Both the position numbers and the translations under genes were made by a program. A stretch of DNA of 64,000 nt from TPA_inf: Saccharomyces (taxonomy: Eukaryota): contig BK006939.2 of the NCBI GenBank assembly GCA_000146045.2, forward strand, positions 448,001-512,000, in the 5' to 3' direction. Under the pieces are notes generated by a model. That model searched no databases, had not been told where the DNA came from, and saw nothing but the letters and a program-made list of their open reading frames with translations. Within the stretch, counting starts at the first letter, position 1, and each line of letters opens with the position of its first letter. Below, one piece after another: positions 21,351-51,346 of this stretch.

Positions 21351-21412
21351 TGATAATTGTTGTGATTCCATTGTTGCCAAAGGCCATAATATTTTGAAAT
21401 TCACATTCCTTC
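21351..21412 (-). repeat. Short delta (Ty1 LTR U5-end) remnant just upstream of tRNA-Val.
   Basis: TGAGTTTTGTGATAATTGTTGTGATTCCATTGTTGCCAAAGGCCATAATATT aligns to the LTR end TGAGAAATGGGTGAATGTTGAGATAATTGTTGGGATTCCATTGTTGATAAAGGCTATAATATT. Confidence 0.55.
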
Positions 21413-21426
21413 TACAAGGTATTTGT

Positions 21427-21500
21427 TTCTTAAATGTTCATCTCCAAGAAATAATTGGTTTCGTGGTCTAGTCGGTTATGGCATCTGCTTAACACGCAGA
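21427..21500 (+). tRNA. tV(AAC): tRNA-Val (anticodon AAC), 74 nt, no intron.
   Basis: GGTTTCGTGGTCTAGTCGGTTATGGCATCTGCTTAACACGCAGAACGTCCCCAGTTCGATCCTGGGCGAAATCA gives a cloverleaf with A box, B box GGTTCGATCC and anticodon loop CTTAACACG. A T6 terminator follows immediately. Confidence 0.95.
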
Positions 21501-21506
21501 ACGTCC
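21501..21506 (+). terminator. RNA polymerase III terminator (T6) of tRNA-Val.
   Basis: TTTTTT lies directly 3' of the tRNA. Confidence 0.8.
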
Positions 21507-21611
21507 CCAGTTCGATCCTGGGCGAAATCATTTTTTAAATATGCCAAGCATAAAGTGTAACTCTGTTTCTCTGTCTGTCTCTATTTCTTTTTTAAAATCG
21601 TGCTCACTATC

Positions 21612-39330: not shown

Positions 39331-39402
39331 CTCCGATACGGGGAGTCGAACCCCGGTCTCCACGGTGAAAGCGTGATGTGATAGCCGTTACACTATATCG
39401 GA
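39331..39402 (-). tRNA. tE(UUC): tRNA-Glu (anticodon UUC), 72 nt.
   Basis: The reverse complement is TCCGATATAGTGTAACGGCTATCACATCACGCTTTCACCGTGGAGACCGGGGTTCGACTCCCCGTATCGGAG, with anticodon loop CTTTCAC and B box GGTTCGACTCC. A T6 run lies downstream on the minus strand (39316-39321). Confidence 0.95.
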
Positions 39403-39833: not shown

Positions 39834-40165
39834 TGTTGGAATAAAAATCAACTATCATCTACTAACTAGTATTTACGTTACTAGTATATTATCATATACG
39901 GTGTTAGAAGATGACGCAAATGATGAGAAATAGTCATCTAAATTAGTGGAAGCTGAAACGCAAGGATTGATAATGTAATAGGATCAATGAATATTAACAT
40001 ATAAAACGATGATAATAATATTTATAGAATTGTGTAGAATTGCAGATTCCCTTTTATGGATTCCTAAATCCTAGAGGAGAACTTCTAGTATATCTACATA
40101 CCTAATATTATAGCCTTAATCACAATGGAATCCCAACAATTACATCAAAATCCACATTCTCTACA
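39834..40165 (+). repeat. Solo delta LTR (Ty1/Ty2 type), complete, about 430 bp upstream of tRNA-Glu.
   Basis: It begins TGTTGGAATAAAAATCAACTATCATCTACTAACTAG and ends ATGGAATCCCAACAATTACATCAAAATCCACATTCTCTACA. It is about 99% identical to 1321..1630. Confidence 0.9.
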
Positions 40166-44351: not shown

Positions 44352-44424
44352 CTTCCCCGCCAGGACTTGAACCTGGAATCTTCTGGTTCGTAGCCAGACG
44401 CCGTGACCATTGGGCCACGAGGAA
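44352..44424 (-). tRNA. tR(ACG): tRNA-Arg (anticodon ACG), 73 nt.
   Basis: The reverse complement is TTCCTCGTGGCCCAATGGTCACGGCGTCTGGCTACGAACCAGAAGATTCCAGGTTCAAGTCCTGGCGGGGAAG, with anticodon loop CTACGAA and B box GGTTCAAGTCC. The sigma LTR ends about 14 nt upstream of its 5' end. Confidence 0.93.
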
Positions 44425-44438
44425 TAGGATGTTCAGTG

Positions 44439-44695
44439 TGTTGTATTACGGGCTCGAGTAATACCGGAGTGTCTTGACAATCCTAATATAAACAGTCTTA
44501 GGGAAGTAACCAGTTGTCAAAACAGTTTATCAGATTAATTCACGGAATGTTACTTATCTTATATATTATATAAAATATGAATCATACTAAGTGGTGGAAG
44601 CGCGGAATCTCGGATCTAAACTAATTGTTCAGGCATTTATACTTTTGGGTAGTTCAGCTAGGGAAGGACGGGTTTTGTCTCATGTTGTTCGTTTT
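44439..44695 (-). repeat. Ty3 sigma LTR, 3' portion (about 257 bp), next to tRNA-Arg. It is interrupted by the Ty1 insertion.
   Basis: The reverse complement matches the sigma consensus: AAAACGAACAACATGAGACAAAACCCGTCCTTCCCTAGCTGAACTACCC ... CGAGCCCGTAATACAACA. Confidence 0.85.
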
Positions 44696-44831
44696 TCAAT
44701 CCTTGCGTTTCAGCTTCCTCTAACATCGATGACAGCTTCTCATAACTTATGTCATCATCTTAACACCGTATATGATAATATATTGATAATATAACTATTA
44801 GTTGATAGACGATAGTGGATTTTTATTCCAA
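44696..44831 (-). repeat. Ty1 3' LTR, truncated. Only about 136 bp of the U3-proximal part remain.
   Basis: It aligns to 50286..50421 of the 5' LTR and ends TATTCCAACA. The R-U5 part (TGAGA...) is absent, and the sigma sequence abuts directly. Confidence 0.7.
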
Positions 44832-44855
44832 CATACCACCCATAATGTAATAGAT

Positions 44856-47800
44856 CTAATGAATCCATTTGTTTGTTAATAGTTTGAATGTTTTTATCGG
44901 AAGAGGTTTGGTCATTACGTCTGCAATATTCTTTTTGGTTTCGATATAGCATACGTGCAGATGATTTCCTGATACTTCATCTCTTAGTCTCATTGCTTTA
45001 GTACCAAAAAATCTGTTTCTAAATTTCTCTTCATTATTGGATATAATTATACTGATTGTAGATTTACTGTCGGTTAGTAATCCTTTAGTAATTGGTTTCT
45101 TGTTAAGTTCTTGCACAAGGTGACTGAGGTTATTTAATAATGGGACAGATTCACTTATCGCGTGTATTTCTGCTTCCGTAGTTGAAGTACATGTTAATGA
45201 AGCCTTGGTGGACTTTCCTCCAATTACTTTTCCATTAAGTAAATATATGTTGCCAATTTGTGATTTATAATACGGTTGGTTACCATACGATGCATCGCTT
45301 ATAACAACTAATTTATTTGTTGGCTTAACAGGTTTGCTTTTGTGCCATATTAATTGCTTATCTCTCGTATTCCATATGAACTGTATCAATTCATATGTCA
45401 TATCTAACACTTGCTTGGACGGAAATAGTATATGTTGTGCAAGTGTGTTGATGTAGTATAATAGGTCAAATCTAAATTTATATCCAACATATGATGCTAG
45501 ACCTATCAGCTTTTGCATTTCATGTACCTTCATTTTGTAATCATCTTCTTCTAGCTCTAGTTCTTGCTGGTCTATATATAGACCTGGTTGACCTGGAGCG
45601 CTAAGTTTCCTTCCTTTTGGGTTCAAAGGTACGTTTAGTTTGGGTATTTTTTCAGTTAATGAGTTTTCCATACCTAATTTCATGTATTTACCTCTTTGAT
45701 ATTTGATTTCTAAGCCAAGTATGTCGTACTGAATTTCGTTATCACTTTCACCCAGATTTATTATCTTTGTATCGTATTGTTTCTTGAGTGTTGTTATGAT
45801 TTTCTTATTTGCATTTAAGTCTTTGCTGAACAATATCATATCATCAACGAATAAGCAAATTGTTACTTGACTATTCTTAAATACGCATGACCATCCACGA
45901 ACTTCTTCCATACCACACTGTTTTATCAGGTATGATTTGATAGTTTCGTACCAGTTCGCTCCACTTTGTTTCAATCCATAAAGTGATTTCTTCAAACGTA
46001 TTAACTTATCATTCATTCCTAAATGTGGTGGAGGTCTTATGTATAGTTCTTCTTTGATGTCTGCATACAAATATGCCGAAGATATGTCTAATTGTGTAAT
46101 ATAGTAGTTATTGTCTAATGCAAGTGACAGGGATGTCATTAATGCATAGTGATGTACGGTATTGGATTGCATGCCTGGGTCGTAAGTGTCAGGATGTTGA
46201 ATATCACCTCTTGCAACAAATCTAGCTTTATGAGTACCGTCACGTTTCCTGTTAAAGATAAACATTGAATTTATTACTCTTTTGGGGTCTATTTCTTTTC
46301 TGTCATAATATCTGTCAGTGTCCCAAGTTTTCATCTTCAACAGTTGATTGACTTCTTTGTGGTATGCCTGGATATATTTTTCTTTTTCTTTAATATCTTT
46401 ATTATAGGTGATTGCCTCATCGTATCGTAAGGTTGTTCGTATTGGTTTGATTGATTTTACTGCTTTTACAGCTGCAATCAGGTGAATTCGTTTCTTCGAT
46501 CTCGGAGGTTCTAAACTACGCATATTCTTAGTATTCCATGTGTCTCGTGATACCTTAATTTCAGTTTCATTATCTTCTAATGATCTTTTCTTACTGTTGA
46601 TAGTAGTATAGGCATTAGAGTCACCAATACCACCCAAACTGGAATTAGTTTGATGAGAATTTATCGGTGGGAGTTCTTTAAAGGAGTCTGATAATTCGGT
46701 AGGAGGTTCTGGAGGCAGATCGGGGAGTGGAAGATCAGCGATAATAGATTCCTCTGTATTCTCCTTAGGACAGGTATCTGACGTTTTGATAGGAACGACG
46801 TGGTGTAGTGAATTACTTTCTGATGAGGAAGTATCGATCGAAGGTGAACGGTGTATGATCCTTTTCTCAGTCTCCTGTTCGCTTGTCTGCGGAACAGTTT
46901 TATTATTGGTACCACCCGTACTGGATATTGGTACGTTTGTATGATTAGTCTCATTGTCACTGTACGAGTCTGAGTGTCTGAAATCTTTAGATTTACTGGC
47001 GTGCGACGACTCATGTGTGTTAGATTGGGACATGGGAGCAAGTAAAGGAACATCTAATCTATGCATACCACCCGAACCGGTACTCTCGATATCGGAAATT
47101 TGGGGGGTGCTAGATCTCTTCTTAGATGGAAGAATATTAGATTCAGATATGTTGGGGTCAACTTCTCTGGGTGCGCGAATATTGGTTTTGGAAACACGTT
47201 TCGAATCTTCAGTATGAGTTGACGGAGGTGTGGAATCGGTTGGACTCACAGCTTTTGAAAGGACATTTCTCAGTTGCTCAGGATGTAGTTCAATGTCAGA
47301 TTGGAAGTCATGGTCAGATTCTATGTTAAGATCATTGGATTGTTGGATCTCATTTGACGCAATGAACGAATGATATGAAGCAGTTAAACGGTTTAAGTCT
47401 TCATCGAAAGTGAGTGCGTCGTAATTGAATTGATCTAATCTGGATTCCTTGCCCTGAAGAATAACATAGTTAGTTGTATCTACTGTCTTCTTTAAGGACG
47501 GAAGATAGATGATATATCCATAAGAGTTTCGAGACGGATGTAGAGCGTAGCCTGGGATGCCACGAGGATGTATTTTGGAGTTAGGGTTGTGATCATTGAC
47601 GATAACAGGTTGACCGAAAGGTAACAAAGTACTGATATCAAGTCCTGCCAAGCCAGCATGTTGTCTTGCAGATTTTTTGCTTTTAGGTGAAGCTAGTGAA
47701 TTTCTCACAATAGTAGAAAATTCGATTGCAGAGAACCATAAATGGTTCGGTAAACCACTACATTGCAGTTGAGTACGGCAGTCATCTAATAAGGTACGGT

Positions 47801-48822
47801 TGAGCCGTTCAGCGACTCCATGTGCTCGGGAATCCGCTGTGGTTGTATAGCATGGAGTTATACCATTTTTTTCAAGGAATTTATGGAGAGTTCTGTTAGT
47901 ATACTCAGAACCACGGTCCATTTGTATAACCAAGACACTGGCCTGAAACTGGTTTTTAATAAAAGCTAGTATCGTAGTAAAAACATCGAGGATAGAGTCC
48001 TCGCGACGGTCGTGTAATGGATAAACCCAACGGAATTTTGTTGTCTCATCAGTAAATGAGATGAAATAGGATGGTGCACTTTTTGGTAGGTTGTGAACTG
48101 GACCAAATATGTCAGTATGTAGGTATTGAAAGGGTTCGTATGAATTTTGGTATTTTAGTCGTGAACCTTTGATATGTCTGTGTTTGGTGCTTTTGCCGAT
48201 TAAACAATCAGGACATTGATAGTCAATAGCACTAGACCAGTCGACATCTGATTCGTTAAAATACGTGATGGTGTTATTTTTAAGTGAGTATCGAATTGTC
48301 TGTGCATTGGCATGTGCAAGCATTCGATGAATGAAAGGATAAGGATATTTGCGTGTACTTTCACTTGTATGGACATTATTGATGGTGGGTACGGAGATAT
48401 TTGATGGAAGCAAGTACTTTTTAGATACCCAGTAAAAGTCTCCATATTTTACGATAGGTGCAAGTACAGTGCCGTCAGACCGTTCTAAGACGTTTTTGGT
48501 AAAGCATGCTGTGATATCTACTGCAGCCAATTCATTCAAACTGAGTAAGTCATAGGCTATGTTAGGAGTGTGCAATACCTTTATTGATGTTTTGGTGTTG
48601 TCCTGGAAGTGAAATTGTAGGTCACCAATAGCGTTAATTGGTATATTTCTTTTTTGAGCATCAACTACGTTTATGTCAGGATTAGATGATGCTGAGTGTA
48701 TGTGATGAGCAGATCTTATAAGGGTTCGTGATGCTCCTGAATCGAGAAGGAGGTGTCCAGGGAGTTCATCATCAGAATGATTAGTATGATTTACTGTAGA
48801 TTCAGTAAGTTTCTGGCCTAAG
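44856..48822 (-). CDS. TYB: Ty1 TYB (Pol: protease, integrase, reverse transcriptase/RNase H), expressed as a TYA-TYB fusion by +1 ribosomal frameshift.
   Basis: The long ORF is in the +1 frame relative to TYA. It contains integrase zinc-finger and DDE motifs, an RT YXDD motif (FVDDM) and an RNase H region. The ORF-track Met-start fragment is 44856..48575. I set the upstream boundary at the frameshift site. Confidence 0.85.
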
Positions 48823-50124
48823 ATGAAGGTCGTGCTTATTGTTCAATTGAATCGGTTCAGTAGTTGATTTACTGATGGAATCGTTGTCCGTGCTGGGAGA
48901 GTTATTAGATGTGGATACATTGTGAGCCCTGGCTGTTTTCGATTTCGAATTATTTGTTTTTTGAGGATTCCGAGCTATAACTTTGGGTTTGGTTGTATTC
49001 GTATAGCTGCGAGAATCATTCTTCTCATCACTCGGATTTCTCCTGTAATTAGGTTTGCTGTTTCTCGATCCCTGTTGTTCTTCATAAATAGCATGGATAT
49101 CTAAGAACAGTTCAGCGACTGTCATATTTAGATGTCGATGACGTGTGTAGCGTAAAAATTTATATTCGCCAGATAGACCTCTCATAATTAATTGGCATGC
49201 GACCTTGTTATTGATATGAATGCCATTATTGTTCAGTCTGTCGATAATGTTTGTGACTTTTGTTTCAAATGCATCTGCAGGTGTACTGCCATTATATTGC
49301 AAATTTGCCAGGGTCACAATGTCGTTTGCCTCTTGGGTATCAGATTGCATTTTTTCAATACTTTTGGAAAGAATTTTCATGATATCCGTATAATCAACGG
49401 ATAGGATGTCTTTGACCCAGGTAGGTAGGAATTGAGAGGGAGCAAATATTTGAAAAGTGTTATACAAGAAGGTGAGTTCATCATCAGTGATCTGACGTAC
49501 GGGTTTTCCGTTTACTGTCGGAATAATACCACCGAGATTCGAGTTTTGTAAAAATTTGATGTATGTTTTAACCCAATTTGGAAAATCATTAGGTGAGGTT
49601 AACATTGGTGGTGGTCTGACATATTTTTTAGTGGATGTCATATCAGAGTCCGCTGAGGATGAATCAGTAAATGTATTACCTGACTCAGGTGATGGAGTGC
49701 TCAGAGGCGTTCCAACTGATGATGGATACTGCGGAAACTGTGATTGTGGCCCAGGTGGAAAGTACATAGGCGACATTTGATAAGGTGTATACGGAATCAT
49801 AGATGGGTGTCCGTAAAATGACCAACCAGATGGATTGGCTTGGTTTTGGGTCATCATGCACTGCTGTGGGTACGGCCCATTCTGTGGAGGTGGTACTGAA
49901 GCAGGTTGAGGAGAGGCATGATGGGGGTTCTCTGGAACAGCTGATGAAGCAGGTGTTGTTGTCTGTTGAGAGTTAGCCTTAGTGGAAGCCTTATCATATT
50001 CTTGAATTTTGGAAGCTGAAACGTCTAACGGATCTTGATTTGTGTGGACTTCCTTAGAAGTAACCGAAGCACAGGCGCTACCATGAGATATATGTGGGTA
50101 ATTAGATAATTGTTGGGATTCCAT
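48802..50124 (-). CDS. TYA: Ty1 TYA (Gag), 440 aa.
   Basis: A 440-aa ORF starting [26 protein letters not shown]. It ends just past the frameshift heptamer. Confidence 0.93.
48816..48822 (-). other. Ty1 +1 programmed frameshift heptamer CUU-AGG-C.
   Basis: GCCTAAG on the plus strand is CTTAGGC on the minus strand. It sits in the 38-nt TYA/TYB overlap, immediately upstream of the TYA stop. Confidence 0.85.
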
Positions 50125-50421
50125 TGTTGATAAAGGCTATAATATTAGGTATACAGAATATACTAGAAGTTCTCCTCGAGGATATAGGAATCCTCAAAAT
50201 GGGATCTATATTTCTACATACTAATATTACGATTATTCCTCATTCCGTTTTATATGTTTATATTCATTGATCCTATTACATTATCAATCCTTGCGTTTCA
50301 GCTTCCTCTAACATCGATGACAGCTTCTCATAACTTATGTCATCATCTTAACACCGTATATGATAATATATTGATAATATAACTATTAGTTGATAGACGA
50401 TAGTGGATTTTTATTCCAACA
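50085..50421 (-). repeat. Ty1 5' LTR of copy 2 (337 bp).
   Basis: It runs TGAGATATATGTGGGTAATTAGATAATTGTTGGGATTCCATTG ... TATTCCAACA. Confidence 0.9.
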
Positions 50422-50510
50422 GTTTTGTTATAAGGTTGTTTCATATGTGTTTTATGAACGTTTAGGATGACGTATTGTCATACTGACGTATCTCATTTTG
50501 AGATACAACA
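50422..50510 (-). repeat. Ty3 sigma LTR, 5' portion (about 89 bp), on the far side of the Ty1 insertion.
   Basis: The reverse complement reads TGTTGTATCTCAAAATGAGATACGTCAGTATGACAATACGTCATCCTAAACGTTCATAAAACACATATGAAACAACCTTATAACAAAAC. Both halves share the 5-bp GTTTT/AAAAC at the junction, which is the target-site duplication. Confidence 0.85.
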
Positions 50511-51346
50511 CAGTGGGCTAAGAATATACAACCGTTTTAGTCAATGTGTTGAAATATCATATTTTAATGCATTGCTCGAATCTCTTCCTTCGACTTACTT
50601 ATATTGATTAAGGGTATGTATTTGATCCTTCCACCTGGAAAAACTGAGGACCTTACAGTGTTATTAAGTGTATGATGTATCACTGTCGTTGTAGTATTTC
50701 TCGGGAAGTTTTTCACTGGCAATTGGAGGTTGCTAGAGTTTCTTTTAACGCATACCCTAAACGCTTGTTTCTATTTTAATGACTACTTGAATCCTATCTA
50801 ACTGGTGACACAATTTGTTTCATTTTTTAATATCTCACCTAATATATCCTAATAATATGAACATACCATAGCTCTTGTAAAGCTGGTCCATATTTATGTT
50901 TAGTTTCCGAATGCTTTTGTAAGGAAACGGGTTGTGGAAAAAAAAAAATACAACTACGTTGCCGCGAATCTTGTTGAAAAAGGTCTCAAATTAAGGCAAA
51001 AATGATACTGGAATTGTTAGTCTTGTATAATCGATCAACTGCAACAACCAAGTCTTTAAATTTTCAGTCCGTCTTGAAAGAATAGTGAAGGTTCATTTTT
51101 ATTTTTACATAGTAAAGTTTATAGAATTATGGGCGATACACAATATAAATGTTCTAACCCAACTGATGCATATCATCACTGTACGTTTGAAAATCGGACA
51201 GGCAAACTGGATAAATGGAAAACGCAATTACAAAGGGTATGAAAATGAATGTAAGAAGTGAAACAGTGCCTCGAAACAGTTCCCAAACTCTCTACGACTT
51301 CATTAGTCATTTCACGTCCATATATCAAAACATATATCAATATTCC

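Follow-up and report, generated by a model that had tools for sequence, protein, structure and literature searches.

A Ty1 element nested in a Ty3 sigma with a 138-bp 3′ long terminal repeat: possible integration of an incomplete cDNA end at YERCTy1-2

Introduction

YERCTy1-2 (Ty1-ER2; YER159C-A/YER160C) is a Ty1 retrotransposon on chromosome V of the Saccharomyces cerevisiae S288C reference genome. Here, we analyze the copy that lies in a window of 64,000 nucleotides (nt) of that chromosome (contig BK006939.2, positions 448,001 to 512,000), with particular attention to its shortened 3′ long terminal repeat (LTR). The element has been placed near 498 kb on chromosome V (PMC9879454), and its layout was recorded in the general feature format (GFF) annotation of Carr, Bensasson, and Bergman in 2012 (File S3, PMC3511429). 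In that file, the Ty3 LTR (sigma) chrV_s141-_TY3 is listed in two pieces (492434 to 492690 and 498417 to 498505), and the Ty1 chrV_i6-_TY1, marked "1-nested," is listed with one LTR at 492691 to 492828, an internal region at 492829 to 498078, and the other LTR at 498079 to 498416. Both the nesting and the 138-bp LTR were thus already annotated and are not new (PMC3511429). The table of the same paper gives YERCTy1-2 as "Full, Active, Polymorphic," present in 3/11 scorable SGRP strains, with the sigma present in 13/16; the shortened LTR goes unmentioned in its main text (PMC3511429). A literature search combining YER160C, LTR, and Ty1 yielded no matches, and papers otherwise mention YERCTy1-2 as a landmark only.

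A similar annotated arrangement is chrIV_i2-_TY1 in chrIV_s64-_TY3 (PMC3511429). As at YERCTy1-2, a full-length Ty1 interrupts a solo sigma, in the same orientation and at nearly the same position, leaving sigma halves of 262 and 84 nt compared with 257 and 89 nt at YERCTy1-2. In sacCer2 coordinates (chrIV 645238 to 651501; Carr File S3), chrIV_i2 lies 84 nt from the sigma start, versus 89 nt for YERCTy1-2. From this likeness, tRNA genes that bear a sigma may offer Ty1 a favored target at a constant distance. Unlike YERCTy1-2, however, chrIV_i2-_TY1 has two full-length LTRs (326 bp as annotated, the comparison being by annotation alone). The "truncated" Ty class of Carr et al. (t41, t120, t194, t219, and t220; PMC3511429) resembles YERCTy1-2 in having lost DNA other than by LTR-LTR recombination. 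Members of that class lost a whole LTR and/or internal DNA, whereas YERCTy1-2 keeps all of its internal sequence, both LTR starts, and the target-site duplication.

With vectors derived from Rous sarcoma virus and human immunodeficiency virus, aberrant integrants can arise in which a normal end is combined with an internal or mutant one, and the duplication is of normal length when integrase joins both. Those integrants were selected in engineered vectors, whereas the event at YERCTy1-2 would be a spontaneous one, fixed in a laboratory yeast lineage, with a mechanism that we infer. For Ty1 itself, the specificity of integrase is limited to A:T ends, and random DNA ending in CA is a substrate (PMC8487063). 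With millimolar (high) Mn2+, random DNA ending in AA also yields Ty1 integration products, and DNA with TG...CA ends was integrated in vivo under Ty1 integrase overexpression (PMC8487063). In the work described below, we compared the YERCTy1-2 locus with alleles from other strains and with the annotated Ty complement of S288C. We give a probability of roughly 50% to the reading that the 3′ LTR was truncated at integration, the U5-side cDNA end being already incomplete when it was joined.

Results

Reading of the sequence together with repeat comparison placed the Ty1 at 44696 to 50421 of the window on the minus strand, a length of 5,726 bp. An earlier note on this DNA, made from the letters alone, had estimated about 5.73 kb. 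The 5′ LTR (delta; 50084 to 50421, minus strand, TGTTGG...TCTCA) is complete at 338 bp, the length annotated by Carr et al. in 2012 and consistent with the note's call of a full-length 5′ LTR. The 3′ LTR (44696 to 44833, minus strand) consists of delta nt 1 to 138, part of U3, all identical to the start of the 5′ LTR (138/138), and is without the rest of U3, R, and U5 (nt 139 to 338); it is likewise annotated as 138 bp by Carr et al. The note had described a 3′ LTR cut to about 136 bp and lacking R-U5, of which the truncation holds and the length has to be corrected to 138 bp. Alignment of the LTRs revealed only these 138 bp, and no full LTR of about 334 bp, at the low-coordinate end, so the junction call stands. 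Elsewhere too, no element lies more than 2 nt from the position given in the note.

The Gag-Pol fusion encoded by the element is an exact 1755-amino-acid (aa) match to UniProt Q03619 / NP_011087.3, "Transposon Ty1-ER2 Gag-Pol polyprotein" of S288C, and the open reading frames (ORFs) flanking the Ty1 element match BUR6 and SPT2 exactly. Because of the Gag-Pol match and the exact BUR6 and SPT2 neighbors, the locus is identified by sequence as YERCTy1-2 of the S288C reference chromosome V. Chance origin is excluded because the retrotransposon is whole and its protein is the very one of a named reference element. The published coordinates (PMC3511429) equal the window coordinates plus a constant offset of 447,995, including those of the 138-bp and 338-bp LTRs and of the split sigma. 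Comparison with the reference S288C YER160C locus, which the note had proposed, returned the same element with the same 138-bp LTR in the annotation, and there is no structural difference between the window copy and YERCTy1-2 as given by SGD and by Carr et al.

Ty repeats are often collapsed in assemblies, and an assembly or sequencing artefact, or a strain-specific difference, might conceal a 3′ LTR that is truly complete. The 7,390-bp SPT2-BUR6 interval, however, is identical in GCA_010356935.1 (L004). The de novo nanopore assembly of CEN.PK113-7D (L017), whose accession was identified in PMC12686821, has the same junction, with its SPT2-BUR6 interval differing by two single-base gaps, and GCA_947370305.1 (L027) has the same structure along with four further similar places. 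A complete 3′ LTR at this site would read GTTCGTTTT followed directly by TGAGATATATG, and the truncated form reads GTTCGTTTT followed by TCAATCC. The string of the truncated junction is present three times in the SGRP alignment of the locus, and the string expected for a complete 3′ LTR has 0 occurrences in 200 SGRP alignment files. Among all fetched contigs and SGRP alignments, no allele of this insertion with a complete 3′ LTR was found. Since the window is itself the reference, the junction is identical in the CEN.PK113-7D assembly and two others, and the annotation was the same in 2012, an artefact is extremely improbable, and the note's suggestion of a difference from the reference strain fails. 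On these sequences, the truncation is real.

We then surveyed annotated LTR lengths in the whole S288C GFF of Carr et al. (PMC3511429) for elements of the full-length classes i or u. The LTRs of the other full-length elements are near complete (Ty1/Ty2, 316 to 338 bp; Ty3, 340 bp; Ty4, 371 bp; Ty5, 250 to 251 bp). YERCTy1-2 is the sole full-length Ty with a grossly shortened LTR, the others being shortened by at most about 22 bp. Because no other full-length Ty is shortened by more than about 22 bp, deletions that erode the LTRs of young elements are rare.

The Ty1 sits in a solo Ty3 LTR next to a tRNA-Arg(ACG) gene (44352 to 44424, minus strand, detected with ARAGORN), the RNA polymerase III (Pol III) target of both insertions. 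The tRNA-proximal part of the sigma (nt 85 to 341; 44439 to 44695, minus strand; annotated as chrV_s141-_TY3) matches the intact sigma in other strains at 100% identity, and its last 5 nt form one Ty1 duplication. The tRNA-distal part (nt 1 to 89; 50422 to 50510, minus strand) was delimited by repeat comparison and the published annotation. All transposon parts lie on the minus strand, the sigma having the same orientation as the Ty1. When one GTTTT is removed, the two halves rejoin into a sigma of exactly 341 bp (an approximately 340-bp LTR is expected for Ty3) with the ends TGTTGTAT...ACAACA, as the note had proposed with its figure of about 341 bp, and this sequence is identical at 341/341 positions to the uninterrupted sigma of the EC1118-type locus L002.

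Both insertions are flanked by 5-bp duplications. The GTTTT copies of the Ty1 duplication adjoin the truncated 3′ LTR (44691 to 44695) and the 5′ LTR (50422 to 50426), and empty sites have a single AAAAC; the unoccupied site, CTTATAAC-AAAAC-GAACAAC with its single copy, was found in 8 of the first 10 contigs from other strains. The sigma duplication reads CAGTG on the plus strand, with the tRNA-proximal copy at 44434 to 44438 (CACTG in tRNA orientation, single in sigma-less alleles) and the distal copy at 50511 to 50515, assigned from the sequence and the sigma-less alleles. The spacer between the tRNA-Arg(ACG) gene and the sigma is 14 nt, within the approximately 20 bp expected for Ty3, and the Ty1 insertion site is 267 to 271 nt upstream of the tRNA-Arg 5′ end, within the approximately 750 bp upstream of Pol III genes that Ty1 targets.

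To compare alleles, contigs of other strains were fetched via TYA and the neighboring genes BUR6 and SPT2 and were labelled L001 to L030; exact look-ups of the 1239-aa TYB ORF, the 33-aa ORF at the 5′ junction, and the 67-aa ORF at the truncated junction found no contigs on record. Three states of the locus were recovered. Sigma-less alleles (L001, L021, L022, L025, L026, and L028 to L030) read ...TTCTTAGCC-CACTG-AACATCCTA-tRNA with one CACTG. Sigma-only alleles (L002, L005 to L010, L023, and L024) have an uninterrupted 341-bp sigma, 99.7 to 100% identical to the rejoined halves, with one AAAAC. Sigma plus Ty1 is found in the window, L004, L017, and L027. Because all three states were sampled and the empty alleles have single copies, both 5-bp duplications are true target-site duplications. 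Comparison of these alleles shows the order of events: a Ty3 insertion 14 nt upstream of tR(ACG)E came first, its reduction to a solo sigma followed, and Ty1 then entered the sigma. The note's account of a Ty1 nested in a pre-existing solo sigma about 14 nt upstream of tRNA-Arg(ACG), with its duplication intact on both sides, is therefore borne out by ARAGORN and by the sigma-only and sigma-less alleles. A simple flanking deletion, which the note had set aside, is ruled out because the sigma is complete on both sides when compared with the empty alleles.

Relative to the empty alleles, no target or duplication bases were lost or gained at the Ty1 insertion. Because an exact 5-bp duplication is present on both sides, the insertion was made by Ty1 integrase. 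Double-strand breaks can take up fragments of Ty1 cDNA. One could imagine that integrase joined the U3 end alone, or that cDNA was captured at a chromosomal break, with the broken right end then sealed by host end joining and the 5-bp repeat being incidental; half-site products are common in vitro (PMC8487063). However, neither route is expected to yield an exact 5-bp duplication without gain or loss of target, in flanks that match the empty allele perfectly, and a 5-nt staggered cut is the signature of concerted integrase action. We therefore consider such a capture quite unlikely.

Next, we examined the position of the truncation within the LTR. In element orientation, the junction reads ...GGATTGA/AAAAC, whereas ...GGATTGA-TAATG...TCTCA/AAAAC is expected for a complete element. 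The junction microhomology is 1 nt if perfect (T on the plus strand) or 3 of 4 nt (TT.T). The 3′ LTR is cut at nt 138, and it is with this base that the LTR's strongest inverted repeat begins. In this repeat, LTR nt 138 to 160, ATAATGTAATAGGATCAATGAAT, pair with ATTCATTAGATCTATTACATTAT, a segment (44842 to 44864, minus strand) that spans the TYB stop codon and ends at GGGTGGTA (element orientation; 44834 to 44841, minus strand), which abuts the 3′ LTR and which, from established Ty1 knowledge, we take to be polypurine tract 1 (PPT1). The downstream arm is present in the intact 5′ LTR at 50262 to 50284 (minus strand), where its first base corresponds to the truncation point of the 3′ copy; in the 3′ LTR, it is lost beyond nt 138.

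In the stem entered at nt 138, 12 nt match perfectly; with one bulge, the pairing reaches 22 bp, and DNA parameters give it about -16 kcal/mol. As a stem-entry position, nt 138 ranks alone at the top, other LTR positions having at most 9 nt of perfect upstream complement. The loop consists of PPT1 and U3 nt 1 to 137, exactly what the truncated LTR retains. When the complete 3′ end was rebuilt and folded, the stem was predicted for both DNA strands, by minimum free energy as well as in the centroid, and for RNA it was present in the centroid. Both arms are kept, as a 22- to 23-bp repeat, in 9/9 other Ty1/Ty2-type 3′ ends in the fetched loci. A study of Ty1 RNA by selective 2′-hydroxyl acylation analyzed by primer extension, which also uses the name PPT1, describes the 3′ region with PPT1 and CYC3 as well structured in vivo (PMC7969010). 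We did not find the PPT1-enclosing stem or its coincidence with the truncation point described in the text (figures aside) of the Ty1 literature searched.

These observations bear on whether the LTR was shortened after or during integration. In the former case, a complete Ty1 would have inserted and LTR nt 139 to 338 would later have been lost in a 200-bp deletion, by end joining or replication slippage. We consider such a history somewhat less probable than truncation at integration. Deleted or truncated LTRs are common among the older Ty remnants in the same genome annotation, the 1-nt (or 3/4-nt TT.T) overlap at the junction fits Ku-type end joining, and no special property of integrase is needed. 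However, one breakpoint would have to coincide, to within 1 nt, with the element boundary, about 1 chance in 100 to 300, and the other with the first base of the strongest inverted repeat, about 1 to 3 chances in 338, and a deletion explains neither. Furthermore, the element is young, its LTRs being 138/138 identical and its presence polymorphic (3/11 SGRP strains), no comparable LTR deletion is seen in the other annotated full-length Ty elements, and no full-length allele was found. Between aberrant integration and deletion through microhomology, the note had made no choice. The latter is not a sufficient explanation with only 1 nt of perfect overlap, and we keep it as a rival but not as the favorite. 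A hairpin-mediated chromosomal deletion and a template jump across the stem were rejected by reasoning, since either would take out the loop along with both arms, the opposite of the part retained.

Integration of an incomplete end is favored over a later 200-bp deletion, with the position of the stem and the intact duplication mildly favoring it. Under this reading, the plus strand carrying the reactive 3′-OH would have stopped at LTR nt 138 (...GGATTGA-3′), where a PPT1-primed strand enters the 22-bp stem in the single-stranded minus-strand template. Integrase, needing little beyond an A:T terminal base pair, would then have inserted the truncated end and the normal U3 end together in one concerted reaction, and the unpaired remainder would have been removed afterwards by host repair. 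The retained 3′ LTR end does finish in A.

Several points weigh against integration of an incomplete end. A fully random probe was inactive under physiological conditions (PMC8487063), and the truncated end, as read from the sequence, is GA, not the canonical CA. A stem that closes a loop of approximately 145 nt would be a weak kinetic block, and Ty1 reverse transcriptase is able to displace strands. The complete 5′ LTR requires full plus-strand strong-stop DNA, so the model has to include either a second strand primed at PPT1 or a transfer between molecules. The coincidence with the stem was noticed post hoc, about 2% of dinucleotide-shuffled sequences have a perfect inverted repeat of at least 12 nt somewhere, and the z-scores for the fold of the rebuilt 3′ end as a whole are not significant. 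In addition, the missing full-length allele is weak evidence because the carriers, laboratory strains among them, may share one ancestor, and a later deletion remains compatible with the junction as it reads today.

Apart from its 3′ LTR, the element is intact, as the note had stated for its TYA and TYB ORFs. TYA-TYB (Gag-Pol; 44856 to 50124, minus strand) encodes 1755 aa through a +1 frameshift at an in-frame CTTAGGC (48816 to 48822), and TYA (Gag; 48802 to 50124, minus strand) encodes 440 aa, with Pfam PF01021 detected on the identical product in other contigs. The gene order is that of Ty1: in identical or near-identical products, PF01021 is in TYA and PF00665 precedes PF07727, placing integrase before reverse transcriptase. 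Upstream of the coding region, TGGTAGCGCC (50074 to 50083, minus strand) is presumably the minus-strand primer-binding site for initiator tRNA-Met, an assignment from established Ty1 knowledge. A canonical Ty1 has two delta LTRs of about 334 to 338 bp with TG...CA ends, and here the 3′ LTR ends in ...TTGA. Judged by its sequence, the element is a Ty1 by descent that is structurally defective.

Other alleles of the region were also noted. Strain PE-2_H4 (GCA_905220315.1; L003, 8844 to 9520) has a solo delta of independent origin and opposite orientation in this sigma, 97% identical to the LTR of this Ty1, at sigma nt 197 to 201 and with its own 5-bp duplication. Because of this independent delta, the sigma upstream of tRNA-Arg is a recurrent Ty1 target. 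The SPT2-BUR6 region has at least six structural alleles. Some sigma-less haplotypes have an old inverted delta (83 to 86% identity), with extra delta fragments in L028 and L029 among them, and L025 and L030 have neither a sigma nor this delta. The intergenic region of L028 is 144 bp longer, and we suspected a 138-bp solo delta left by LTR-LTR recombination, but BLAST revealed unrelated delta fragments in a sigma-less haplotype. In Carr File S2 (PMC3511429), the row for chrV_i6-_TY1 apparently gives S288c, W303, and the sake strain K11 as carriers, by inferred column order; the K11 call is unexpected and may be an artefact of low-coverage, reference-guided alignment.

At its other end, the window opens inside the neighboring YERCTy1-1. 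Over window nt 1 to 983, identity to the beginning of the YERCTy1-2 internal region is 99.4%; the 5′ LTR of YERCTy1-1 follows (approximately 1004 to 1320, 92% identical) and adjoins an older delta (1323 to 1607). A solo delta (39834 to 40142, 84% identity) adjoins tRNA-Glu(TTC) (39331 to 39402), and a 42-bp delta fragment (21352 to 21393) adjoins tRNA-Val(AAC) (21456 to 21531). The remnants beside tRNA-Glu and tRNA-Val are the usual association of Ty elements with tRNA genes.

Discussion

The R region of the Ty1 LTR begins near nt 240. LTR nt 139 to 338 are absent from the 3′ end of YERCTy1-2, and with them R and the polyadenylation region found in the 3′ LTR of an autonomous Ty1. Under the established scheme of Ty1 replication, transcripts from the intact 5′ LTR should read into the sigma, which has the same orientation, and should still be translatable. 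Minus-strand transfer on the element's own RNA is expected to be impossible because there is no 3′ R to accept minus-strand strong-stop DNA. From its sequence, YERCTy1-2 is thus expected to be defective in cis and to act as a protein donor of Gag and Gag-Pol, and the note's "probably not autonomous" is a reasonable inference. Although the published table lists it as "full, active," YERCTy1-2 is without a 3′ R and does not belong in a tally of mobile Ty1 copies. The element also serves as a recombination substrate in studies of chromosome V rearrangement.

As a genome feature, YERCTy1-2 is of little weight: it has been annotated for a long time, lies at a classic hotspot beside a tRNA gene, and is ordinary in kind. 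Its small remaining interest is that of a natural example, a young Ty1 in which the duplication is perfect but the LTR is cut internally, and which raises the question of whether Ty1 integrase is able in vivo to insert cDNA ends that are incomplete. The cut at the foot of the PPT1-enclosing stem offers a concrete, testable idea for the origin of such ends, and we regard it as a modest lead and not a discovery. The fuller proposal, to which we would give somewhat less than an even chance, is that YERCTy1-2 is a natural fossil of concerted Ty1 integration via an internal, non-LTR-terminal end that came from a PPT1 plus-strand stop at the foot of a conserved hairpin. If this is true, the element would provide in vivo evidence that Ty1 integrase tolerates noncanonical ends, and the 3′ end of Ty1 would contain a previously unremarked structured element that is able to arrest plus-strand synthesis.

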